In this document: piece after piece, positions 3,506-46,727 of the stretch
Layout of the letters: the number at the start of each line of letters is the position of its first letter
Position numbering within the stretch: position 1 is the stretch's first letter
Assembly (NCBI GenBank): GCA_026401075.1
Contig: JAPLNQ010000237.1
Span: 28,790-92,789 of the forward strand
Length of the DNA: 64,000 nt
DNA from: Planctomycetia bacterium
GTDB lineage: Bacteria > Planctomycetota > Planctomycetia > Pirellulales > UBA1268
Reading direction: 5' to 3'
The notes under the pieces: generated by a model
Databases searched by the model: none
The model's input: the letters and a program-made list of their open reading frames with translations, nothing else
Told to the model about the DNA's origin: nothing
Program-made: the position numbers and the translations under genes

Positions 3506-3645
3506 GTGGGCAATGTACCCGCTGCGGGCCTTGGAAAATCTCCCACCGCGAAACGACCGGGAGAGCCGGGGACTGTCTTCACGCGAAACATGACATCGTT
3601 TCGCCCTGACGAGCGGATGCCCGTCCTTAGCCAGTTTCTTCGACC

Positions 3646-3733
3646 CGTGGCCACGAGTTTTTAACTTGTGGAATATGCCCGGGGGACACGGACAAGTTGA
3701 AAACTTGCCGCCACGGTGGAGCGGGACACGGAC
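3646..3733. repeat. palindromic intergenic repeat, family 1 (GGCAAGTT-N4-AACTTGCC core), one unit plus terminal module, inverted relative to 8886-9037
   Basis: cgtggccacgagtttttaacttgtgg ... acggacaagttgaaaacttgccgccacgg ... ggagcgggacacggac is the reverse complement of the element at 8946-9037 with a few mismatches. It lies in the divergent helicase/argH intergenic region. Confidence 0.75.
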
Positions 3734-8885: not shown

Positions 8886-9037
8886 CGTGGCGGCAAGTTT
8901 TTAACTTGTCCGTGTCTCCGCTCCCCGTGGCGGCAAGTTTTCAACTTGTCCGTGTCTCCGCTCCCCGTGGCGGCAAGTTTTTAACTTGTCCGTGACATAT
9001 CGCGGATTCCACAAGTTAAAAACTCGTGGCCACGAGG
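8886..9037. repeat. family 1 repeat array: 40-bp unit x2.7 in tandem plus terminal hairpin module
   Basis: The unit cgtggcggcaagttttTaacttgtccgtgtctccgctccc occurs at 8886-8925, 8926-8965 (1 mismatch) and 8966-8994 (truncated), followed by acatatcgcggattccacaagttaaaaactcgtggccacgagg. It lies between the convergent sigma54 activator and lipA genes. Confidence 0.85.
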
Positions 9038-9094
9038 CGAACTCCTTCGGTCTTGTCCTTCATGCCGAGACAGCCTCAACACCGCTTTCCGCTT

Positions 9095-16597: not shown

Positions 16598-17321
16598 GCG
16601 CGTAGAGGTCGCGGTCGTACCGGTGGAGCCGGTGCGGATCCTGGAAGAAACACTCGCTCGCCACCGCAAAAAATTCCCCGGGCCCCTCGGCGGCGTAGTC
16701 GTCGAACGCGACGAACCGCCCCTCGTCGAGCGCCTCCGCGAATCGCTCCCGGCAGTCGAGAATTCCCCGCGTCCACTCGCGCCTCGCGGTTGCCGATGCC
16801 AGCGGCGGAACGCCGTCGATCTCGCCGTCGAGCAGGTCGATGGCGTGGGCACACTCGTGGATCACCACGCTTCGCGGTCCGTCGCGAAGCCGGCCGCCCT
16901 CGACCACCCGTGGCCAGGAGAGCACCATGCTGCCACCGTTCCAGGTCTCACCCAGACGAGGTTCCTTCCACAGCAACTCACCGCCACCCTCCAGCGGCGT
17001 CGACCGCTTCCCAAAATAGTCGCCCGGATAGACGAGCACCGACTGCAGGTGGTCGAAGAACTCGTCGGGTAGACCCAGCACGATCAGGCCGGCCTGGCCG
17101 GCGATCGACACGCGGACCTCGTCGTCGATCTCCATGCCGCGACAGCCCTCGAACCGCTTCTCGGCGACGAAGACAGCGATCCACGCCTGCAGCCGTTCCC
17201 GCTCGTCATCGGCGAGCCACTGCATCTGCCGCAGGTTTCGCCTGAGGATGTCGCTCCAGACCGGCGGCCACGGCCTCGCCCGGATCGAGCGGCGTCGTCG
17301 GGACCGGAGCCAGCCAAACAT
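16536..17321 (-). CDS. MtfA-like zinc metallopeptidase (M90 family)
   Basis: HExxH as VVIHECAHAI, downstream EFFAVASECFF, about 260 aa. This pattern is typical of MtfA/DUF980 peptidases. Its 3' end overlaps the convergent PQQ gene by 62 nt. Confidence 0.65.
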   Translation of the reverse strand: MFGWLRSRRRRSIRARPWPPVWSDILRRNLRQMQWLADDERERLQAWIAVFVAEKRFEGCRGMEIDDEVRVSIAGQAGLIVLGLPDEFFDHLQSVLVYPGDYFGKRSTPLEGGGELLWKEPRLGETWNGGSMVLSWPRVVEGGRLRDGPRSVVIHECAHAIDLLDGEIDGVPPLASATARREWTRGILDCRERFAEALDEGRFVAFDDYAAEGPGEFFAVASECFFQDPHRLHRYDRDLYALMVEAWRQDPKSRVPVQRAR

Positions 17322-18471: not shown

Positions 18472-20247
18472 TCAACGACTCTGCAACCTGCCTCGCCGGG
18501 ACCATCCCGACAGCAGTGCGACCGCTGCGACCGCCACACACGCCCCCAGCGGCAGACTCCCCCAGACAAGCCACGGACTCGTGCGGCCGTCGGGCCTGAC
18601 ACGTGCCCGCAGGGTGCCAGTAGCCCGCCTGGGCCCCCTGGCCAACAGCCGGCCCGAACCGTCGATCCAGGCTGAAAACCCCGTGTTTGCCGCGATCGCC
18701 AGCGGCGTCCGCACCTCGACCGCCCGGAAAATCGCCGCCGTCAGGTGCATGTCGAGTTCACTCGACCCCCAAAACCAGCCGTCGTTGGTGAGGTTGACGA
18801 TGACGTCGGGCCGGCCCCCTTGACGGCCCAGTTCGAGCACCAGCGTCCGCACCGCCTCCGGCAGGGCTGTCTCATAGCAGATGTTCACCGCCACACGCGA
18901 GCCGGCGATCGTCACCGCCACCGGCTGGGTGCCGGCCGTCAAGCCAGCCGGGAGCGGCGTGAGCCGGTAGAGCCAGGGAAAACGCTCGGCGAGCGGAATG
19001 TACTCGCCAAACATCACAGGGTGCTGCTTGCTGTAGCACGCCAGCGCGACGCCCTCGGGATCGAGAAACAGACCGCAGTTGTAGTTTTTCGCGCCGGACG
19101 GGGCGTGTGGAGTGACCACCTGCTTGTCGAGGCCAACCAACCAGTGCGTGCCATACCGCCGCGCGAAGGCGGCCAGCAGCGTGAGCCGTTCCTGCTCGAG
19201 GACGCGACGACAGACCGCCTGCCGATCGGCGGCAGTCCCCGTCGTATCCCGACCGGCGAGCGTCTGCGCGACGACGCTCTCGGGCAGCACCTCGTCGGGA
19301 TCGATATCGAGCAGTCCCCACCGCCACATCGTCTCCGGCCAGACGATGAGGTCGGGACGCGATGGGCCGGCTTCACCCACGGCTGGTCCTTCACGCAAGT
19401 CCAGCGCAGCCATTGTGAGGTCGTCGTAGTGCTGTGCCACATCACCGGCGGCATCGGGATCATGCTTGAGTTCGGTGTCGATCGATCCCTGCACGAGCAG
19501 CACGTCGAGCACAGGGCCTTCCGACCGCGGCTCGCCCTGAATCCGCCAGTGTCCGTAGCCGATGGCGGCGACCAGCACGACGGCGGCGGCCAGGCCCGCC
19601 AGGACGGCCGCACGAACGCGCTCGCGCGACGCCACCGCGGCGACGGACTCGGCCAGACCGGCGGCCACGGCCATCACCACGCCCCCCACACCAACCGCCC
19701 CCAGGCAATCAGCCACCTGGATGAGCGTGGTCCATCGCCACTGGGTGTGTCCCAGTCCGCCGAACGTGAAGCCTCCCAGCACCGAGCCGCGGAGGTGCTC
19801 GCAGGCCATCCATGCCACGGGCGCCGCCACCACCAGCGGCCACCGCCAGCCATGCACCAGCCGGCGGGCGATCGCGACGAAGAGTGGCAGGGAGCAGGCC
19901 AGATAGGCCGAGAGTGCCACCCAGCCGATCGACGTCGCGGGGTGTGGCAGCCGCAGCCAATGAATTGCGGCCAGCCAGTGGCAGAAGCCGCCCAGCCACA
20001 GGCTCCGCCACGGATGCGCGGCCGAGAGACGGTCGGCCTGCACGATCGCCAGCCACGGCAGCGGCGCCAGCCAGGCGAGCATCCAGCAGTCGGCAGGCGG
20101 TTGCACGAGAAACATCGCGGCCGCGCCGGCCAACGCGAGGGACAGTACGCCGCGGCCGTTCAACGTCCCGTGAAACAGACCGGCCGTGTCCAGGCGGTCG
20201 AGCAGCAACCGGCCCAGCCGGCCCGCTTCGGTCGGCCGGTGCGTCAT
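18472..20247 (-). CDS. lnt: apolipoprotein N-acyltransferase
   Basis: Multi-TM N-terminal half followed by a CN-hydrolase domain with DLIVWPETMW and VAVNICYETALPE. 591 aa. Confidence 0.85.
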   Translation of the reverse strand: MTHRPTEAGRLGRLLLDRLDTAGLFHGTLNGRGVLSLALAGAAAMFLVQPPADCWMLAWLAPLPWLAIVQADRLSAAHPWRSLWLGGFCHWLAAIHWLRLPHPATSIGWVALSAYLACSLPLFVAIARRLVHGWRWPLVVAAPVAWMACEHLRGSVLGGFTFGGLGHTQWRWTTLIQVADCLGAVGVGGVVMAVAAGLAESVAAVASRERVRAAVLAGLAAAVVLVAAIGYGHWRIQGEPRSEGPVLDVLLVQGSIDTELKHDPDAAGDVAQHYDDLTMAALDLREGPAVGEAGPSRPDLIVWPETMWRWGLLDIDPDEVLPESVVAQTLAGRDTTGTAADRQAVCRRVLEQERLTLLAAFARRYGTHWLVGLDKQVVTPHAPSGAKNYNCGLFLDPEGVALACYSKQHPVMFGEYIPLAERFPWLYRLTPLPAGLTAGTQPVAVTIAGSRVAVNICYETALPEAVRTLVLELGRQGGRPDVIVNLTNDGWFWGSSELDMHLTAAIFRAVEVRTPLAIAANTGFSAWIDGSGRLLARGPRRATGTLRARVRPDGRTSPWLVWGSLPLGACVAVAAVALLSGWSRRGRLQSR

Positions 20248-23434: not shown

Positions 23435-23501
23435 TTGGCGGGCCTCCGCCCGCTGGTGCTTACTCGGCCCTCCGGGCCTAGCGCTGAATAGTACGATGCA
23501 C

Positions 23502-23644
23502 CCGTGAGGGGCTGCCCATGCCCCGAGAGCCGGCGTTGCTGACCAGCGCAGGCAGGATGCCGGAGCGCAGTCAGCATCGAGTGAGCGAAGGCCATGGATG
23601 GCCGTAGCGAACGTCCGGCGACGGGGCATGGGCAGCCCCGAACC
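23502..23644. repeat. MITE-like element, family 2 (about 143 bp, roughly 18-bp terminal inverted repeats)
   Basis: The ends ggggctgcccatgccccg and cggggcatgggcagcccc are reverse complements. Nt 23502-23591 are identical to 42421-42510. It lies between convergent genes. Confidence 0.75.
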
Positions 23645-30322: not shown

Positions 30323-31018
30323 TTACGGCCCGAGGTCGATCTTCGTGATCGTCCAACGCTCCACGCGCCGCTTCTGCTCGTTCACGACGACGGGCACGAG
30401 CTGCAGACGTACATCCACGGCGTCGCCACCGGCACAGGGCGACAGTCGGATCTGCACGCACCAGTCATTCCCCGTCTCCTCGTCGCGACCAGTGGACCGC
30501 ACGTCGCGAACGGCCGCGGTGCCACAGCCGAGGATCGCCGACACCGCGGGCAAAGACTCGATGGCAACGGCCGTGCTATCGGCGTGGGCGTGGTGCTCAT
30601 GATGCTCCGGTTCGCCAGGCCGATGGCCGTCCCCATGAGAGGGCGGCAGCAGATGCTGGCCAAGCATGCTCTGGGCAGCGGAGAGTCGCTTTTCGCCGAG
30701 GGCGTCGAGCCACGCATGGGCCACCCCCTGGGCGCGCCGCTCCATGATTGATCTCGTGAACAGGCTCGCCGTCACGGCCTGAACGCCGAATCCCACGGAC
30801 AGGGCGAGGCCCACCAATGCGGCCGCCCGCCCCGCCTTCTCCGCACCCAACCGCATGACATCCGCCAGTCCCACGAGAGCGATCGCCGTGCCCGCCAACG
30901 GCAGGACCCAGAGCAACGGAGTCGTGATCGCCAGGCTCGACAGCACGCCCAGCACTGCCGCCGCCACGGCCAGTTTGCTCACCGGGCGGTAGCTGATTAT
31001 TTCAGCAGACGCTTTCAT
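30323..31018 (-). CDS. hypothetical membrane protein (2-3 TM N-terminus, His-rich loop, soluble C-terminal domain)
   Basis: ORF 30323..31018(-). TM helices LAVAAAVLGVLSSLAITTPLLWVLPLAGTAIALVGL. HGDGHRPGEPEHHEHHAHAD stretch. Last gene of the pilT block. Confidence 0.6.
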   Translation of the reverse strand: MKASAEIISYRPVSKLAVAAAVLGVLSSLAITTPLLWVLPLAGTAIALVGLADVMRLGAEKAGRAAALVGLALSVGFGVQAVTASLFTRSIMERRAQGVAHAWLDALGEKRLSAAQSMLGQHLLPPSHGDGHRPGEPEHHEHHAHADSTAVAIESLPAVSAILGCGTAAVRDVRSTGRDEETGNDWCVQIRLSPCAGGDAVDVRLQLVPVVVNEQKRRVERWTITKIDLGP

Positions 31019-37214: not shown

Positions 37215-39044
37215 TTACTTCTTGTCAGCGTCCGGCTTCGCCGCTGGTGCTGGTGTCGCCGCTGGTGCTGGCGCCGCGGCGGGTGCTGGTGTCGCGGCGG
37301 GTGCTGGTGTCGCTGGTTTTGCTGCAGCCGGGGCCGGTGGGGCTGCTGCAGGGGCTGGCGCCGGAGCCGGCGTGGCTGCGGGCGCAGGCGTTGGGGCAGG
37401 CGCTGGAGCCGCAGCCTGCACCACAGAAATCCGGAACTTCCCGATGGCATGCGTGCCATCGGCATACTGCTGATCGATCGTGATCGCCAGCGGCGCGCCG
37501 GCCGACAGCTTTACATCCGGGGCGATGTCGAACGTTGCGGCATGCTCCTTGCCCGTGCCGCCGCTGATCGCCCAGCCGGTCTCGGGGTTGTCGTCGATCG
37601 CACCGGCCACGGCAAAGCCACCCTGCTCGTAGTCGGCCTTGGCACCGGAGAACTTCGCCTTGGTCGGTGTCTCGTTCGATCCCGGGGCACCGAAGAGCAC
37701 CGCGAATGTGCTGAGCACGAAGTTGCCGTTCCCGGCGCGGCCTGGCCCCTGACCGGGCAGGCTGGCATCGGGCAACGCCTCGAGCTTGATCGCCTTCGCC
37801 TCCACTCCAGCCGGGATGACAGCCTTGAGCGTGTAGGTATCCTTGGCGAGGCTTCCCGTGACGGTGAGGGTGCCGTCGGGGGCGATCGCCGCCGTGGCGC
37901 CGGCCATGCTCTTGAACTCGGTCGGCACGAGCGTCGTCGCCTTCTGCGCGGTGGCCGCAGCGGGAGCCGGGGCAGGCGCCGGTGGAGGACTCGGCGGCGG
38001 CGGCGGTGGCGGCAGGAGCTTGGCGGCCGGCGTCGGCACGAGCTTTCCGCCGACGTGCGAACCGACGAACATCGTCTTGCCATCGGGCGCGAAGGTCACG
38101 CACCAGACGCTCGACTTCGCAGCCTCCGGGCCTTCCTGCTCCCCCTTCGCGTTCACATCCCAGAGCTTCACGGCGCCGTCGAGGCTGCCGCTGGCCAGCC
38201 GCGTGCCATCGGGCGAGAACGAGGCGCTCGTCACCCAGTCTTTGTGGCCCGAAAGCGTGGCGAATTCCTTGGAGTCGGAGGTGGTCCAGAGCTTGATCGT
38301 GCGATCAGCGCCGGCCGTGGCGAGCTTCGAGCCGTCGGGCGAATAGGCGACGGCCCAGAGCGCGTCGGTGTGGCCTTCGAGCTTGCCTTTTTCGTTGCCT
38401 GTGGCTGCATCCCACAGCTTCACGAGTTTGTCGCCGCCGCCGGTGGCGGTCGTCGCGCCGTCAGGCGAGAAGCCGACGGCCGTGACCGGCCCAGCATGGG
38501 CGGCGATGGTCTTGATCTCCTTGCCGTCGGCCGTGTTCCAGAGCACGACGGTGCCATCCTCGCCAGCCGAGGCTAGCTTCGTGCCATCGGGCGAGAGATC
38601 GAGCGACCGCACCCAGCCCTTGTGCTTCTTGAGGTCTGCCTTCAGAGTCCGCGCCGGCAGGTCCCAGAGCTTGACCAGGCCGTCGTAGCCGGCCGTCGCC
38701 GCAAGCTTGCCATCCTTCGAGACCTTCACCGCCCAGACCGCAGTGGGATGGCCAGCCAGATCGCCCACCCGGGAACCGTCCGCCTTCCAGACGACGACGT
38801 CGCCGGGCCGGTAGAGCAGGCTCTCACCGCCCGCGGTGACGAGCGTCGCGCCGTCGCGGGCATAATCGGCAGCGATCACCCACCGCGTGAAGGCGGGGAG
38901 GTTGGCCGCGGGAGCTGGCGCGGCGGCCGCCGGTGCAGCTGCGGCAGGCTCGGCGGCTCGGGCAGCAGCCTGGAGAAGGCAGGGCGCCACACTGCACAGG
39001 GCGACTTTCAGGCAAACGAGGGAAAAACGAGCGAAGCGTCGCAT
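37215..39044 (-). CDS. secreted WD40 beta-propeller protein with poly-Pro linker, beta-sandwich-like domain and Pro/Ala-rich tail
   Basis: ORF 37215..39116(-), start at ATG 39044 after GGAGA. Signal peptide MRRFARFSLVCLKVALCSVAPCLLQAAARA. At least 6 WD repeats (GHxxxVWAVxxSPDGxxLATAGxDxxxKLWD). PPPPPPPSPPPAP linker. AIDDNPETGWA...GKFRISV domain. Confidence 0.8.
   Translation of the reverse strand: MRRFARFSLVCLKVALCSVAPCLLQAAARAAEPAAAAPAAAAPAPAANLPAFTRWVIAADYARDGATLVTAGGESLLYRPGDVVVWKADGSRVGDLAGHPTAVWAVKVSKDGKLAATAGYDGLVKLWDLPARTLKADLKKHKGWVRSLDLSPDGTKLASAGEDGTVVLWNTADGKEIKTIAAHAGPVTAVGFSPDGATTATGGGDKLVKLWDAATGNEKGKLEGHTDALWAVAYSPDGSKLATAGADRTIKLWTTSDSKEFATLSGHKDWVTSASFSPDGTRLASGSLDGAVKLWDVNAKGEQEGPEAAKSSVWCVTFAPDGKTMFVGSHVGGKLVPTPAAKLLPPPPPPPSPPPAPAPAPAAATAQKATTLVPTEFKSMAGATAAIAPDGTLTVTGSLAKDTYTLKAVIPAGVEAKAIKLEALPDASLPGQGPGRAGNGNFVLSTFAVLFGAPGSNETPTKAKFSGAKADYEQGGFAVAGAIDDNPETGWAISGGTGKEHAATFDIAPDVKLSAGAPLAITIDQQYADGTHAIGKFRISVVQAAAPAPAPTPAPAATPAPAPAPAAAPPAPAAAKPATPAPAATPAPAAAPAPAATPAPAAKPDADKK
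37218..37415. repeat. imperfect tandem GC-rich repeats encoding the (P/A/T)n tail
   Basis: gctggtgctggtgtcgc-type units are reiterated. They translate on the minus strand as PAPAATPAPAPAPAAAPPAPAAAKPATPAPAATPAPAAAPAPAATPAPAA. Confidence 0.5.
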
Positions 39045-39259: not shown

Positions 39260-40957
39260 ATGTCCACGCCATCCCGCTCGTCGTTGTCCAAACCATCCGC
39301 CGCCGCCGGCAAACGCCGGGCGGTGCTCGTCGCCAATGGCGATCTCCGCGAGGAGGCCAACCGGGTCTGCTGGCCGGCGCAGCAGGCGATGGAGGTCGAC
39401 CTCGTGAGGGCCTTTGCCGCCGCCGGCTGGAAGCTGGAGCGGGGCCATACCGCGTCGAAGGCCCGCGGCCATGGTTTCATCGCCAGCGCCCGCGAGGGGC
39501 TCGACGTGTTCGAGACGATTGACCCCGATGTGCCGCTGGTCGTGGCCGAGGCGGTCTGGCAGTATTCCAACCATGTGCTCCCGGGGCTCACGACCCACTC
39601 CGGCCCGATCCTCACGGTGGCCAACTGGTCGGGCCAGTGGCCGGGCCTGGTGGGCATGCTCAACCTCAACGGCTCGCTCACGAAGGCGGGTGTTCGTTAC
39701 TCGACGCTCTGGGCCGACGACTTTGCGAGCCCAAGCTTCCGGCGGCACCTGCAGGCCTGGCTCGATCACCGCGCCGTGCACCATGACACGAGCCATGTCG
39801 TGCCGTTCGCCAAGGTGTCGATCCCGCGCAAGCTCGCGCACGCCGCCGAGACGATCGCAGCCGATCTCCGCCATCGCAAGGCGCTGATGGGGGTGTTCGA
39901 CGAGGGCTGCATGGGGATGTTCAACGCCATCATTCCCGACCACCTGCTCCACGCCACCGGCGTCTTCAAGGAGCGGCTCAGCCAGAGTGCGCTCTACTAC
40001 GAGACCACGCAGGTGACCGACGCCGAGGCAAAGGAGGTCTTCCGCTGGATCGAAAAAGCGGGGATGCAGTTTCACTTCGGCAAGCAAGAGACCACCGACC
40101 TCACCCGGGCCCAGGTGCTCGAGCAGTGCAAGATGTATGTGGCCGCGGTCCGTATCGCCGACCGCTTCGGCTGCGACTGCATCGGCATCCAATACCAGCA
40201 GGGGCTCAAGGATCTCCTGCCGGCCAGCGATCTCGTGGAGGGGATGCTCAACGACTCGAAGCGGCCACCCGTGACCGCGGCCGGCTCGTCGAAGCCGCTC
40301 TACAAAGGAAAGCCGCTCGTGCACTTCAACGAGGTGGACGAGTGCGCCGGGCTCGACGGCCTGCTCACGCAACGCGTGCACGAGGCGGTCGGTGAGCCGG
40401 TGGAGAACACGCTCCACGACATCCGCTGGGGCGACTGGGACCAGTCACGGACCACCGACCAGTGGGTCTGGGTGTTCGAGATCTCGGGCGGTGCCCCGCC
40501 GGCACACTTCACGGGCGGCTGGAAGGGCGCGCATGGCTACCGGCAGCCGCCGATGTATTTCCGGCTCGGCGGCAGCACGCTGGCCGGGGTGAGCAGGCCG
40601 GGCGAAATCGTCTGGAGCCGGATCTGGATCGACAACGTGGAGGGCCATGAAAAGCTCTGCATGGACATTGGCCGAGCCCAGGTGGTGACGCTGCCGGAGG
40701 AGGAGACGCGACGTCGGCTCGAATCGACCACGAAGCAGTGGCCGATCATGCATGCGGTGACCTACGGCATCTCGCGTGACCAGATGATGGCCCGTCACAA
40801 GGCCAATCACATCCAGGTGGCGTATGCGAAAGACGCCGCCGGCGCCGACAGGGCCGCCCTCACGAAGGCCGCGGTCGCACGGGCACTGGGCATCGAGGTG
40901 AACTTCTGCGGCACGCGGGGCCACGGCGTGTCGCCGAGCCTGCGCTGGGATGCGTGA
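39260..40957 (+). CDS. L-fucose isomerase family (FucI-like) sugar isomerase
   Basis: ORF 39191..40957(+), start at in-frame ATG 39260 after GAGGGA. The blocks [24 protein letters not shown] and C-terminal [29 protein letters not shown] parallel the E. coli FucI layout by eye. Confidence 0.55.
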
Positions 40958-40964
40958 GGAGCAC

Positions 40965-41061
40965 GTCTTCGGCAAGTTGAAAACGTGCCGCCACGATGGA
41001 GTTTGAAGACGTCCTGCCGGTATCGATCGCTCCGTGGCGGCAAGTTTGTAACTTGCCGTGG
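40965..41061. repeat. family 1 repeat, two units in inverted orientation
   Basis: ggcaagttgaaaacgtgccgccacg (40971-40995) and cgtggcggcaagtttgtaacttgccgtgg (41033-41061). Between convergent genes. Confidence 0.7.
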
Positions 41062-41071
41062 CTTCGGCCCG

Positions 41072-42370
41072 TCACGCCCGCACGAGCGGCTCGACCACGC
41101 CCGTGCTGTCACCAAATGAAGGCATGTCGATGCCTGACCCCTTGAGAATTGTCAGCCACGCGTTGCACAGGGGCGTGCCCTTGGGCACGACGATCTGCTC
41201 ACCCATGCAGAGGCCCGCGCCGCGACCGGCCACGAGCGTGGGGCAGTTGTCGAGGCTGTGGCCGGTGCGGATGTTGCTGCCGTAGACAACCGTCGTGTGG
41301 TCGAAGAGTGTGCTGCCGTCCGGCTCCTTCGTCGCCTTGAGACGATCGAAAAGCCCCGCGAGCAGTTCGCTCTGGGCGGTGTCGCGTCGCTGCGACGCTT
41401 CCTGCTTCTCGCCGGCATGGCCGTGGTAGTGGCTCATCGTGTGGGCCTCCACCTTGATGCCGAGGCTCGAGACGAGCGTGCTCACCGGCTGCCGGTAGGT
41501 GATCACCCGCGAGCTGTCGGTTTCGAGGGCGAAGGCCGCGATCTCATACATCAGCCTGATCTCCTCGACTCCCGCGAGGCCCGGCTTCGGCTCCGCGATG
41601 GCCGGCTGCGGACGTTCCACGCCGAGCCACTTCCTGTCGCGGGCGAGCTTCGCCTCGAGGTCGCGAATGCCGTCGAAGTATTCACGAAGCTTCTCCCGGT
41701 CGGCCTTGCCCAGGCGGCGGCCAAGTTCACGGACATTATCGATCGCGTCGTCGAGCACGCTCTTTCGTTCCAGGAGCCTCGCCTGTTGCTGCTCCAGCGG
41801 CGTCGTGTCCCGAGCGAAGAGCTTGTGAAACGCCTCGACAGGGTTGCGGGGGCCGCCCAGCGGCTTGCCACGGGAGTCCCACGAGAGCGACAGGCCCGGG
41901 CCATGCCCGGAGCCGCCCGCCGCCTCGCCGCAGTCGAGGCAGAGCGAGTCGAACCTTGTGGCAGCTCCGAGCCGGCTCGCCGCGACCTGGTCCACCGACA
42001 CGGTGTTGGAAAAGGCCTGCCCAGGCTGGCCAAACTCGTTGGCACCGGTCAGCCAGAACGTGCTGCCGTAGTGGCCGTTGGCGGTGTGCCGGTGCCAGAG
42101 CCCCTGGATGATCGTGAAGTCGGCCTTGTGCTTTTCCAGCGGCTGAAGGCCTGGCGGCAGCGGATAGTCCCGCCCGGGCTTGTTCGCGTCGGGATACCAC
42201 GAGTCGTTCGTCACGCCCCAGCCGAAGCCGAGAAAGAGGAGCCGCTTGGGCCGCGGCTCCGCCGTGGCGGCGGCCGCAAACCGGCGAAAGCCGAGTGATT
42301 CAAGCGCGGGCAGCGCGATGATCGCGGTGCCTGTCTCGAGAAATCGACGACGTTCGAGCGGAATGTTCAT
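41072..42370 (-). CDS. DUF1552-type protein (Tat-signal-like N-terminus), usual partner of PSD/DUF1592-type proteins
   Basis: ORF 41072..42970(-). Start at ATG 42370 after GGAGAA (MNIPLERRRFLETGTAIIALPALESLG). Blocks LLFLGFGWGV, FWLTG, SVDQVAA, LSWDS, NPVEAFHKLF. Confidence 0.7.
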   Translation of the reverse strand: MNIPLERRRFLETGTAIIALPALESLGFRRFAAAATAEPRPKRLLFLGFGWGVTNDSWYPDANKPGRDYPLPPGLQPLEKHKADFTIIQGLWHRHTANGHYGSTFWLTGANEFGQPGQAFSNTVSVDQVAASRLGAATRFDSLCLDCGEAAGGSGHGPGLSLSWDSRGKPLGGPRNPVEAFHKLFARDTTPLEQQQARLLERKSVLDDAIDNVRELGRRLGKADREKLREYFDGIRDLEAKLARDRKWLGVERPQPAIAEPKPGLAGVEEIRLMYEIAAFALETDSSRVITYRQPVSTLVSSLGIKVEAHTMSHYHGHAGEKQEASQRRDTAQSELLAGLFDRLKATKEPDGSTLFDHTTVVYGSNIRTGHSLDNCPTLVAGRGAGLCMGEQIVVPKGTPLCNAWLTILKGSGIDMPSFGDSTGVVEPLVRA

Positions 42371-42420
42371 GGTAGTTCTCCGAGGAGCAAGTTCTCGTGG
42401 CAGTGTGACTGTTGTTGAAT

Positions 42421-42562
42421 CCGTGAGGGGCTGCCCATGCCCCGAGAGCCGGCGTTGCTGACCAGCGCAGGCAGGATGCCGGAGCGCAGTCAGCATCGAG
42501 TGAGCGAAGGACAGGATGTCCGAAGCGAACGTCCGGCGGCGGGGCGTGGGCAGCCCCGAACC
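42421..42562. repeat. MITE-like element, family 2, second full copy
   Basis: 90 nt are identical to 23502-23591, with the same terminal inverted repeats. It sits inside the operon, between the PSD-family gene and the DUF1552 gene. Confidence 0.75.
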
Positions 42563-42605
42563 GTCGATCACATTGTCATGTCTTGGATGTTCCAACTTGT
42601 CACTG

Positions 42606-45294
42606 TCACTTCGATCGAAACGCCTCGCTCTGCACGAGCGCGTGGATGAACTCTCGGATCGCAAAGTCTTTGGCGGCGGCCCGGGCCATGCCCGGAGCCG
42701 CCCGCCTCCACGAGAGCCTTCGCGAAGCCGCGGGCGAAATCCTTCTCCCGCGCGGCGACGGCATCGCGAAAACCATCGAAGCCGATGAATGACGGGCCGC
42801 CATGGAAGCGGCCGGCCACCTCGATCGGCCATGTTTTCTTCATGGCTGCATTCGGCTGGCCATGGGCATCGACCGGCGTGTAGCTGTCTTCCGTGCGCCA
42901 GGCACCCACGGCGTCGAAGTTTTCGAGCGCGAGACCCGGCGGATCGATCCGCCGGTGGCAGTTTGCGCACTGCGGCTCCTCCTGGTGGGCGACCAGCCGC
43001 TCCTGCGTGGTGAGCGATTTTCCCGCGAGCCTCGCCACCTGCGGCACGTTCGGCGGCGCCGGCGGTGGCGGATCGTCGAGCAGTTTGCGGAGCACCCAGG
43101 CGCCCCGTTCCACGGGGCTTGTGTGCTCACCGTCGCTGCCCATCGCATGGATCGCCGCCATGCCCAAGAGCCCGCCCCGCGGATTGCCCGGTGGCACGGA
43201 CACCCGCCGGAACTCATCGCCGACGACGCCGTCAATGCCGTAGTACTCGGCAAGCAGTCCGTTGACGACGATGAAATCCGCGTTGAGGAGATCACCTAAC
43301 CGGCCATTGGTCCGCAGGAGATCCGCGAACGTCTCATAGACCTCGCGGCGGGCCGCCTCCTTTGCGGCCGCGTCGAACCGCGGATAGGTCGCGTGGCTAA
43401 ACTGGAAGAAGTCGAGCCGGTCCATGGAGAGCCATTGCGACACGAACGGCACCACGAAGCTGCGCACCCGCGGGTCGTCGAGCAGCCGCCGGCACTGCTC
43501 GTCGAGCGCGGCAGGATCGCCGAGTCGTGCGGTTTGGCCATCTCTCTTGGCCTTCTGTCGTAGGATCGCGTCCGGTGGCTCGCCCCAGAGCAGGTAGGAG
43601 AGCCGGCAGGCCAGCTTCTGTCCGTCGAGCGTGTCGTCGCCGTCGTCGTTACTGCGTTCGGGCTCGGCACGATAGAGAAACCTGGGCGATGCCAGCACCG
43701 ATGCAAGCGTGTCCTCGAGCGCCGCCGCGTGCGTGGCCCCGACCTTGCGGCGCAGCATGGAGGCCGTCATCAGTCGGTCGAGGTAGCCTTTCGGTGCCGA
43801 GGCTCCGCGATATGCTTCGAGCACGAACCGCCCGAGCGCCGACTTGATCGCCGCGGGCGGAAGTGAAGCCCCGCGTTCGTCGAGCGGGATATCGAGCGCG
43901 CCGAGGCCGGGCGGCACCCTACTCGCCCGATCGGGCAGCCGCTCGATCTCCAGCCAGTCGATCCAGATCGCGAGTTCGGGCCCGACGCCGTTGGCCTTCT
44001 GCGCCTCCTTGAAGCGAGCCACGGCACGCGCCAGCTGCCCCATGCCTCGTTCCCGGATGAAGAGCATCCGGCTGCGGCCGTCGTGCTTCGCCAGGATCAC
44101 GTACGGGATCTCGATCACGGCCGGAGCATCGAGGGTGCCGAGCACCTCGTGGGTGCTCGTGGCCGGCACGTCTTGGGGCCACGGGGCCTGCCCGAATTCG
44201 ATGAAGCGGCGATCGGCCGGAGCCTGCGGCGTCGCTCCGGCTCGAACCCGCACCACATAGTCGCCCGGCGGCCAATCGTCCGGAATCCGCAACGCGAACC
44301 AGTTGTTGGCATAGCTCGACCGGCCGGCTCCCGGCAGCGTGAGATAAGCCCCCGTGTCGAGGTGCGACTGTTCGAGATACCGCTTCTCGTATGCGATAAA
44401 CTCAGTGTTGCTGTTCAGTTCCCAGAGAACCTGCTCGTCATAGGGTTTGGGCCAGCCAAACTGGTCGGGCGCGGGTGCCCCGGGAATCTGCCTCCACTGG
44501 TGGACCATCTGCCAGTCGCTCCTGGCACGCTTCCGGATCTCGGCGAGCGTTTCGGCATTTTCGGGCTTGTTGGCGGCGGCGAGAACCGCATCGACCCACG
44601 CCTTCGCCCGCTTGTGCTCGTCGAGCCATTTCTCATGGGTTGTCGCGAACCACGTGCGGCCGGCCTCGACCTCGACCCGCAGTTTCTTCTCGACGCCGAT
44701 CGCAGCCTGTCGCAGAAACGCCTCGTGGACCGCCTCGCGGCCGAGTGCCCGGTACTGGTCGAACTGGTCGCCCGACATGAAGAGGTTGCTGCCGGAGGTA
44801 TCGAAGCCGCCGGACCGCGTGTCGGCCGGCAGTTCATTGACGTCGATCTCCACCCCGAGGAGCTGCCGCAGCGTGTTTTGATACTCGCGGCGGTTGAGCC
44901 GCCGCAGGAGCGTGTCGTCGCCCTGGTCGGCCAGGCTTTTCCGCGCCGCCACCATCGCATGGGAGAGATCGTCGAGCAGCTCGATCTTCCGGGCCGGATC
45001 GAGCGACTTCGCATCGGCCGGCGGCATCTCGCCCGAGTTCAAGGCGTTGAGCACCTTCTGCCATCGCTCCGCCATTTCGACCGAGTCGATCGCCCGCGTG
45101 AGCGTGTCGACGCGGAACGACGCCTGGGCATCGTCCGGCCCGTGGCATTCGAGGCAGTGCTCGGCGAGCAGCGTCGGCGACGCGGCGGTCACGCGCGGCG
45201 GTTCGTCGCTGCACGGAGCGGGGCTCTCGCATGCCACCGCCATGGCGGCCAGCAGGGCGGGCAGCCATCCCGGCAGCACTTTCGGCATGGTCAT
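42606..45294 (-). pseudogene. planctomycete PSCyt/PSD-type protein (DUF1587/1592/1595/1588/1585-like), C-terminal frame broken near 42680-42710
   Basis: ORF 42568..45480(-), start at ATG 45294 overlapping the upstream stop (ATGA). CxxCH (CLECHGPDD) after a signal peptide. CANCHRRIDPPGLALENFDAVGAWR block. The family-typical C-terminus DFAIREFIHALVQSEAFRSK* is only found in another frame (ORF 42606..42803). Confidence 0.7.
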
Positions 45295-45734
45295 TTCGTC
45301 TTGGCTGGCGCGGACGTGGTGTCGATCTCGATGTCGATCTGGTTGTGCCCCGGCTTCACCGTGCGGGTGAACTTCGACTGCCGGCCGTAGTGCTCCGGGA
45401 TGCGGACATCCTTGAGGGCATCCGGCACCTTCGGGATGCCTTCGACCATCTGCGGCATGACCGTGACCCGCACGAGGCACTCGTCGGGCATGACGCCCTT
45501 GCGGGCCGCCGTGAAGAAGAGTTCGTACTTTCCCTTGTCGTCGGTGATGCCCATCGACGGCGAGCCCTTCAGCCCCTGCGGCTGGAAATCGACGCGGATA
45601 CCGGCCGGTGCCGCCGCGCCGTCAATTTTCACCGCGCCCGTGCACGTGACACCGACGCCTCGCGGACCGCAACCGGCGGGGAGCAACGTCAGGCCGATGG
45701 CGACCAGCAGGAGGAACCGGCTTCGCGATCGCAT
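45291..45734 (-). CDS. lipoprotein with carboxypeptidase-regulatory-like beta-sandwich
   Basis: Lipobox LLPAGC after MRSRSRFLLLVAIGLT. GAVKIDGAAAPAGIRVDFQP...DDKGKYELF pattern. 147 aa. Confidence 0.65.
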   Translation of the reverse strand: MRSRSRFLLLVAIGLTLLPAGCGPRGVGVTCTGAVKIDGAAAPAGIRVDFQPQGLKGSPSMGITDDKGKYELFFTAARKGVMPDECLVRVTVMPQMVEGIPKVPDALKDVRIPEHYGRQSKFTRTVKPGHNQIDIEIDTTSAPAKTK

Positions 45735-45737
45735 CGC

Positions 45738-46727
45738 TCAGTATTCTCCCACGGCGAGGCCATCGGCGCGCGTGCTCAGCCGCTCGTACACGCCGCGGCT
45801 CGAACTCGAGATATTGCTCAGATAGCTGTTGATACTGGCGTCCACGCTGCCATCAAAGGTCCAGAGCAGCGGGTTCGTCTGGATCATGTCGTCGATGAAC
45901 CGGACTGATGCGTCACCCATCGCGAAGTTCGCGCCGGCGGGGTGGAAGCTGCCGAAGGCGTCTGTCAGGCCCGAATTGAGTTTGTTTACCGTCCACCGGG
46001 TGGTCTCCACGAAGACGTTGTTCTGGTTGACCGTGCCGGTCCAGATGCCGGGCATTTTGCCAGGATTGACTCCCACCGCCGGCGTGCCACCGGCCTCGCC
46101 GACGAGGAACGTCTTCGAGAGTCCATCCGTGAAATCCTTGAAGGCGGCGCCCTTCACCTTGCGAAAGGCCCCTTGCGACAGACGAATCTGCTGGTCGGTG
46201 CTGCCGCCCCACGATCCCGTCGCCCCGCCATTGGCAAGATAGTTCGACTTGCTCGAGGTGAAGGTGAGCCACGAAGCGGCCGAGTTGACCTGTACCTCCG
46301 GGTCGAGGAGCGCGACCGTGTCGGTCGGACACACGAACGACGGGATCGCCGCCCGGGCCTGGGCCGCGACCGCCGTATCCATATACATCGGCACCTGCAT
46401 CCGCCAAGTCGTCTGGTTCATGCAGGCGTCGAAGAGTGACGCCTGCTCGATATAGGGCAGCACGAAGAGCATCCAACTCCAACCCTGGCGACCCTTCGTA
46501 TCCACGGTGCTGTTGGTTGCCGACGGCGGCAGCGTCTTGTTGGCGTCTTGGTAGTTGTGCAGGGCCACAGCCACCTGCTTCATGTTGTTGCTGCACTGCG
46601 ACCTGCGGGCCGCTTCCCGTGCCGCCTGCACGGCTGGCAGGAGCAGACCCACGAGCGTGCCGATGATCGCGATCACGACCAGGAGCTCGACCAACGTAAA
46701 CGCACGCTTCGACGCAATTGATCTCAT
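45738..46727 (-). CDS. DUF1559 protein with prepilin-type N-terminal cleavage/methylation signal
   Basis: ORF 45738..46859(-), start at ATG 46727. KRAFTLVELLVVIAIIGTLVGLLLPAVQAAREAARRSQCSNNMKQ is the canonical planctomycete DUF1559 N-terminus. C-terminal SFHPAGANFAMGDASVRFI. Confidence 0.85.
   Translation of the reverse strand: MRSIASKRAFTLVELLVVIAIIGTLVGLLLPAVQAAREAARRSQCSNNMKQVAVALHNYQDANKTLPPSATNSTVDTKGRQGWSWMLFVLPYIEQASLFDACMNQTTWRMQVPMYMDTAVAAQARAAIPSFVCPTDTVALLDPEVQVNSAASWLTFTSSKSNYLANGGATGSWGGSTDQQIRLSQGAFRKVKGAAFKDFTDGLSKTFLVGEAGGTPAVGVNPGKMPGIWTGTVNQNNVFVETTRWTVNKLNSGLTDAFGSFHPAGANFAMGDASVRFIDDMIQTNPLLWTFDGSVDASINSYLSNISSSSRGVYERLSTRADGLAVGEY

Follow-up and report, generated by a model that had tools for sequence, protein, structure and literature searches.

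The stretch of DNA analysed here (the window) comprises 64,000 nucleotides (nt) of a Planctomycetia bacterium (contig JAPLNQ010000237.1, positions 28,790 to 92,789) and carries on its minus strand a gene of the PSD/DUF1592 family (the PSD gene) together with a DUF1552/HXXSHH gene. The subject of this report is a junction near the 3' end of the PSD gene, at which a 29-nt tract identical to part of the DUF1552 gene stands in the place of native coding sequence. The two genes, and the displaced C-terminus of the first, are as follows.

42568..45294, minus strand: PSD-family (PSD/DUF1592) gene as deposited, 908 amino acids (aa), with domains PSCyt1, PSD3, PSD5, PSD4 and PSCyt3; last 45 aa out of frame
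41072..42370, minus strand: DUF1552/HXXSHH gene, 432 aa, intact, downstream partner of the PSD gene; PF07586, E = 6.6e-73
42606..42677, minus strand: native C-terminus AAKDFAIREFIHALVQSEAFRSK plus stop, undecayed, last 23 codons intact, out of frame; matches positions 52-74 of the PSD2 profile

The 970-aa open reading frame (ORF) from which an earlier note on this DNA had started does exist (42568-45480, minus strand), but it overstates the gene: the start that matches the orthologues lies at 45294, giving a PSD gene of 908 aa. A Pfam search of the full product returned the five family domains listed above and no match to PSD2 (PF07624) at E < 0.01. The product is identical, frameshifted tail included, to P0245, which is GenBank MCX7431528.1 from a Planctomycetia metagenome-assembled genome (MAG), where its contig measures 96.7 kb. 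The disrupted allele is already public, annotated as an ordinary DUF1592 protein. By a chance of the shifted frame its 908 aa are typical of the family and equal the length of the closest orthologues, and so the frameshift escapes annotation and length checks. Relatives of the locus were found in MAGs labelled Planctomycetia, Planctomycetaceae and Pirellulales. The closest homologous locus in the GTDB collection, which was covered with one genome for each of 185,579 species, was 83% identical.

Loss of the PSD2 domain

In every orthologue checked, the C-terminus is encoded in one frame as GFAKALVE-YALGRPCGFRDEPLVE[S/A]IVARA-AAKDFAIREFIHALVQSEAFRSK followed by the stop. These orthologous proteins comprised eight at 81-91% identity, one 98%-identical fragment (P0121) and one 94.9%-identical full-length protein (P0252). 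The window's PSD ORF leaves the family sequence directly after FAKALVE, at residue 863 of 908, and AAKDFAIREFIHALVQSEAFRSK with its stop continues in another frame at 42606-42677. The earlier note was thus correct in placing the loss of the family C-terminus at the 29-nt tract. Alignment of six orthologous DNA loci (L003-L008) sized the missing segment: between GTGGA and GCCGCC/GCCGCA the relatives have 67 nt, where the window has the 29-mer. The exchange of 67 nt for 29 nt is a net change of -38 nt, which produces the frameshift and causes the last 45 residues to be read out of frame.

The lost segment amounts to 22 codons, YALGRPCGFRDEPLVE(S/A)IVARA, and is the core of the C-terminal PSD2/DUF1585 domain. 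It includes the YALGR-type segment that had seemed to be missing, found at the same place in the orthologues. In a family set of 271 members, the strict EY[AT]LGR-type pattern was present in 264, the remaining 7 being close variants, and the motif started exactly 45 residues from the C-terminus in 257. All orthologues carry PF07624, and the C-terminal fragment of the window's product in its deposited frame scored 14.7 bits against the Pfam gathering cut-off of 25.8. The PSD2 domain has been lost from the gene product. The frame is restored by deleting 28 nt, not by deleting all 29, and after the 28-nt deletion the domain core is still missing. A simple 29-nt insertion was therefore rejected, since removing the 29 nt leaves the frame unrestored and the orthologues show 67 nt to have been lost.

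No orthologue shares the tract in frame. All are intact, and among 79 homologous GTDB loci, 4 of which are cut by contig ends, the C-terminal region was disrupted in none of the 75 assessable ones. Judged from its sequence, the PSD/DUF1592 gene of the window is probably a loss-of-function allele or a young pseudogene.

Source of the 29-nt tract

The tract, its second copy and the part of it that can be traced to one source are the following.

42678..42706, minus strand: 29-nt tract in the PSD gene, equal to 41893-41921; occupies the place of 67 missing native nt
41893..41921, minus strand: donor tract in the DUF1552 gene; encodes (A)GGSGHGPG; 1-2 mismatches in the DUF1552 orthologues of L003, L006 and L008
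42687..42702, minus strand: 16-nt core, plus strand CATGCCCGGAGCCGCC; sole possible source is the DUF1552 gene

The 29-mer GGCCCGGGCCATGCCCGGAGCCGCCCGCC lies at 41893-41921 in the DUF1552 gene and at 42678-42706 in the PSD gene. No further copy turned up in the window when up to 3 mismatches were tolerated, and all 100 dinucleotide-preserving shuffles were without a 29-mer match; the identity is not due to chance. No exact match was found in the GTDB genomes. With two copies in 64 kb and none in those genomes, the tract is not a common or dispersed genomic repeat of the repetitive extragenic palindromic (REP) or miniature inverted-repeat transposable element (MITE) kind, the reading that the earlier note had named as fatal to its proposal. 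The two copies share strand and direction and are 785 nt apart, and identity between the two loci stops within 35 nt. The copied tract is read in the same frame in the two genes, as GGSGHGPG in both.

The direction of copying was indicated by the orthologues. In the DUF1552 orthologues of L003, L006, L008 and, partly, L005, the native coding sequence includes the tract, the TGTC after it and an adjacent 10-mer (discussed below), all of them conserved; the peptide GGSGHGPG is accordingly native to the donor gene, as had been proposed. The DUF1552 orthologues differ from the window tract at 1-2 positions, and the copy in the PSD gene matches the window's own DUF1552 allele at 29 of 29. A tract native to the DUF1552 family and matched in full to the window's own allele marks the DUF1552 gene as the donor and places the copying in this lineage. 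The age of the event was estimated from the PSD gene itself. The ratio of nonsynonymous to synonymous substitution (dN/dS) over codons 1-863 was 0.17-0.22 against four orthologues, and the 72-nt out-of-frame remnant has 0-1 mismatches against L003, L004 and L006; together these values indicate that the event was recent. As judged by alignment to the relatives, donor identity, donor direction and recency are shown.

The length of the filler had been put at 29 nt. An identical copy of that length is indeed present at both sites, but only part of it is unambiguously foreign. The flanks of the 16-nt core (9 nt at 42678-42686 and 4 nt at 42703-42706) also match the PSD genes of relatives. By alignment, the origin of as many as 13 nt of the tract, these 9 and 4, is ambiguous, which leaves an unambiguous filler of 16-20 nt.

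Junction anatomy and proposed event

In gene orientation, the native order (as in L005/L006), the PSD gene of the window and the donor read as follows.

Native PSD: AAG GCT CTC GTG GAA TAT ... GAG CCG CTC GTG GAG GCG ATC GTC GCC CGG GCC GCC GCC AAA
Window PSD: AAG GCT CTC GTG GAG GCG GGC GGC TCC GGG CAT GGC CCG GGC C GCC GCC AAA
Donor DUF1552: GGC GAG GCG GCG GGC GGC TCC GGG CAT GGC CCG GGC CTG TCG CTC TCG TGG

Two features lie beside the two tracts.

42707..42717, minus strand: native left flank, codons A-L-V-(E), holding a 10-mer (42708-42717) and the first CTCGTGGA copy (42707-42714)
41879..41888, minus strand: second copy of the 10-mer, native to the DUF1552 gene, 4 nt from the donor tract

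In the native PSD gene there are two copies of the 8-nt direct repeat CTCGTGGA, 48 nt apart (ALVE ... PLVE). Its second copy is followed in L004 and L005 by GGCG (GAGGCG), which is the same in the window and in the donor, GAGGCG(GCG). At the other end, GCCCGGGCC (9 nt, in L006/L007) or CGGGCC (6 nt, in L003/L008) stands directly before GCCGCC and matches the 3' end of the donor. The PSD orthologues of L006 and L007 both contain GCTCTCGTGG without change. If the ancestor resembled these relatives, the alignment suggests microhomology at each switch point. Together with the rarity of the tract, the intact orthologues and the direction of copying, this supports, with refinements, the proposal of the earlier note, a deletion repaired with a templated insertion through microhomology or template switching.

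We favour, with fair rather than high confidence, the reading that one planctomycete lineage recently underwent a complex mutation, a deletion combined with a templated insertion, which broke the PSD2 domain of the PSD/DUF1592 gene. In this event, a growing DNA strand, at a stalled fork or a resected break, would have switched template three times at short identities (4-9 nt). It would first have slipped from the first native CTCGTGGA repeat to the second, 48 nt off, then jumped to the DUF1552 gene at GGCG/GAGGCG, where approximately 16-20 nt would have been copied from the same strand, and finally returned to the PSD gene at (GCC)CGGGCC. This three-switch path recreates the window sequence exactly, with -48 + 10 = -38. 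A blunt join after GTGGA could alternatively account for the 5' junction. We infer the order and number of the switches, the enzymes involved and the existence of the junction in cells and not only in the assembly. The path may have been replication template switching or break repair, in one event or two.

The 10-mer CCACGAGAGC lies beside the tract in both loci, at 41879-41888 and 42708-42717, as had been noticed earlier; a third, unrelated copy lies at 30871. Three copies compare with 0.29 expected in the window. Relatives carry the 10-mer unchanged, in their PSD genes (L006 and L007) as well as in their DUF1552 genes (L003, L006 and L008). A flank match of at least 10 nt was found at 0.65% of random window sites, an after-the-fact figure, and elsewhere in the window only the donor has the 10-mer and GCCCGGGCC within 100 nt. 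Membership of the 10-mer in the copied tract was ruled out, as it is native in the orthologues of both genes and is not collinear in the two loci. It may have anchored a second DNA end at the same opened donor region.

Between the recipient and donor sites lies one further element.

42416..42562, no strand assigned: intergenic repeat of ~147 nt forming a long hairpin, between recipient and donor; second copy at 23497-23644

The two window copies of this element are 92-97% identical. When folded, the copy at 42416-42562 forms a single long, imperfect hairpin (-86.4 kcal/mol, z = -6.9), and an Rfam scan of the window, this element included, gave no match. The element is nearly 100% conserved in L005, whose flanking genes are ~95% identical. 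Its hairpin could conceivably have acted as a replication obstacle. As a separate observation, the 72 nt at the 3' end of the PSD gene (42606-42677) differ at 0-1 positions from L003, L004 and L006 despite a synonymous divergence of 0.23-0.38 elsewhere in the gene; this end and the adjoining intergenic element are unusually conserved at the DNA level.

Weight of the evidence and alternative explanations

Taking the one-event and two-event versions as one, we judge it rather probable that the junction is present in cells. The assembly around the junction was corroborated by Logan assemblies of three runs (ERR15302210, ERR15302219 and SRR20698642), which were 100% identical to the window over 40928-42446, 43942-46665 and 44165-46288. 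The DNA of the DUF1552 gene was 100% identical to Logan contigs L001 and L002. Base-perfect agreement of the flanks with three runs shows that the consensus is accurate here and that the strain was present in several samples.

Several results weigh against a templated insertion in this lineage. The junction is present in one deposited MAG assembly only, and the Logan contigs identical to the window (L001, L002, L088 and L089) end short of it on both sides, L001 and L002 breaking inside the 147-nt repeat. A 28-mer spanning the junction had no match in JGI metagenome contigs, and a protein search with the frameshifted tail returned intact relatives as best matches, the closest being P0121 at 98% identity; overall, neither GTDB genomes nor JGI metagenome contigs nor the protein collection yielded a second, independent instance of the junction. 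The absence of downstream decay suits an artefact as well as a very recent event. The microhomologies are taken from relatives at ~92-95% nucleotide identity, and it is at these very positions that the relatives disagree with one another. The position of the 10-mer relative to the tract differs between the two loci, so that it has no place in any simple path of primer realignment. Finally, the template lies 785 nt away and does not flank the break as in the templated insertions of eukaryotic polymerase theta (PMC4032859, PMC12426944).

Other searches were also negative. A gapped pattern for any shortened allele had no match in JGI metagenome contigs, a protein search with the C-terminal half found no close fragments, and look-ups of exact products (the full protein and guessed contig-edge fragments of both alleles) all failed.

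A real if unlikely alternative is an artefact, either an in-vitro chimera from template switching in amplification or library PCR, which also uses microhomology, or an error of assembly, polishing or gap closing that became fixed in the MAG consensus. It would explain why one assembly alone carries the junction and why all attempts at finding it elsewhere were negative, and it fits an out-of-frame C-terminus without any decay in a gene whose remainder is under clear purifying selection. However, the native PSD and DUF1552 genes share at most 9-10 nt, presumably too little for a k-mer assembler to find a path between them, in which case the junction must be in the reads. A rare library chimera would be expected to lose in the consensus, three independent Logan assemblies agree with the flanks at every base, and the record is labelled as a MAG, not as an amplified single-cell genome.

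A stronger form of the templated-insertion reading is doubtful. It would take the junction as the in-vivo footprint of a planctomycete pathway of end joining or template switching, with few-base priming, short ectopic copying hundreds of bases away, dissociation and rejoining, like eukaryotic polymerase-theta repair, the donor being picked through 9-10-nt matches to both sides of the lost segment within 23 nt of the neighbouring gene. Were it true, templated-insertion scars would be a recoverable mutational signature in bacterial genomes.

Two successive real mutations are very unlikely. An in-frame 48-nt deletion between the CTCGTGGA repeats would have been followed by an ectopic DUF1552 patch that replaced 6 nt with 16 nt. 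The 8-9-nt direct repeat is present in all close relatives, the GAGGCG after its second copy matches the window, and the sum -48 + 10 = -38 is exact. However, an allele with the 48-nt deletion only was not found with the gapped pattern in JGI metagenome contigs, none of the 75 assessable loci has a disrupted or frameshifted C-terminal region, and two rare events at one site without other decay of the gene are less parsimonious than one complex event.

Functional novelty, with the new 45-aa tail selected or the frame restored by programmed ribosomal frameshifting, is hardly credible: the shared GGSGHGPG frame and the family-typical 908 aa would suit it, but the arrangement is in no orthologue, the motif core is physically deleted so that restoring the frame cannot rebuild the domain, and the tail has no Pfam match and crosses former intergenic DNA. 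Programmed frameshifting in particular was rejected because the two-frame arrangement is not conserved, all orthologues being in one frame and 0 of 75 loci disrupted.

Other repeats in the window

Three further sets of repeats were observed. A palindromic family based on CGTGGCGGCAAGTTTTTAACTTG was present at 3639-3733, 8886-9041 and 40970-41058; one cluster consists of three tandem 40-nt copies, and another copy lies just past the DUF1552 stop codon. In appearance these palindromes resemble terminators or REP-type elements. An exact 20-mer, CCAGACCGGCGGCCACGGCC, is shared by 17256-17275 and 19653-19672, 2.4 kb apart and with unrelated flanks, and could be due to chance or be another small templated patch. 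At 38160-38722, five tandem 126-nt units with 66-71% identity lie inside a long ORF, which suggests a repeat-domain protein with 42-residue repeats.

Implications and comparison with known systems

MCX7431528.1 lacks its C-terminal domain yet passes length and identity checks, a caution for pseudogene detection. On the function of the PSD/DUF1552 gene pair the present finding adds nothing new. If reads confirm the junction, it would be a clean natural bacterial case of deletion with templated insertion, in which donor, recipient and candidate microhomologies can be identified. Templated-insertion scars are well documented in eukaryotes, and none turned up for bacteria in the literature searched. 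As a single locus, the case establishes no pathway; scanning closely related MAGs for such scars is feasible.

Among known processes, ectopic gene conversion likewise overwrites a short patch from another locus and leaves the donor unchanged. Here, however, the genes come from two unrelated families, one with PSD domains and the other HXXSHH; apart from the tract and a few 8-10-nt identities they have no homology, and length was not conserved, 67 nt having become 29 nt. Conversion between paralogues was ruled out because the Pfam families are unrelated and identity ends within 35 nt. Short-range replication template switching, as at quasi-palindromes (PMC5453318, PMC7954356, PMC7202029), resembles the proposed event in that one event yields clustered changes with bases drawn from a nearby alternative template, and a stalled fork and short identities are invoked. 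There the copy is inverted, from the opposite strand and within tens of bases, whereas here it is direct, over 785 nt and with a 67-nt loss. A short inverted template switch was excluded because the copies do not differ in strand or direction.

In bacterial pseudogenes, 43% of small deletions lie between microhomologies of 2-11 nt (PMC6054270). Such microhomology-flanked deletions have been attributed to alternative end joining, with Chayot et al. 2010 cited for E. coli (PMC6054270). The PSD gene is similar in being inactivated by a deletion that ends at short direct identities; those cases (PMC6054270) are plain deletions, whereas a tract copied from a second locus is present here. End joining by polymerase theta in eukaryotes produces deletions of 50-200 bp with short inserts, which repeated cycles of priming and dissociation copy from the DNA at the flanks (PMC4032859, PMC12426944). 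The loss of 67 nt falls in the same 50-200-bp class, the insert of ~16-29 nt reproduces without error a sequence that lies near it on the chromosome, with the donor unchanged, and the candidate short identities at the putative switch points would fit repeated priming, extension and dissociation. The present case differs in coming from a bacterium and in its proposed microhomologies of 4-9 nt, which are longer than the single-nucleotide priming of worms. In form the junction belongs to a class of mutation already described, to which it adds one more case without defining a new system.

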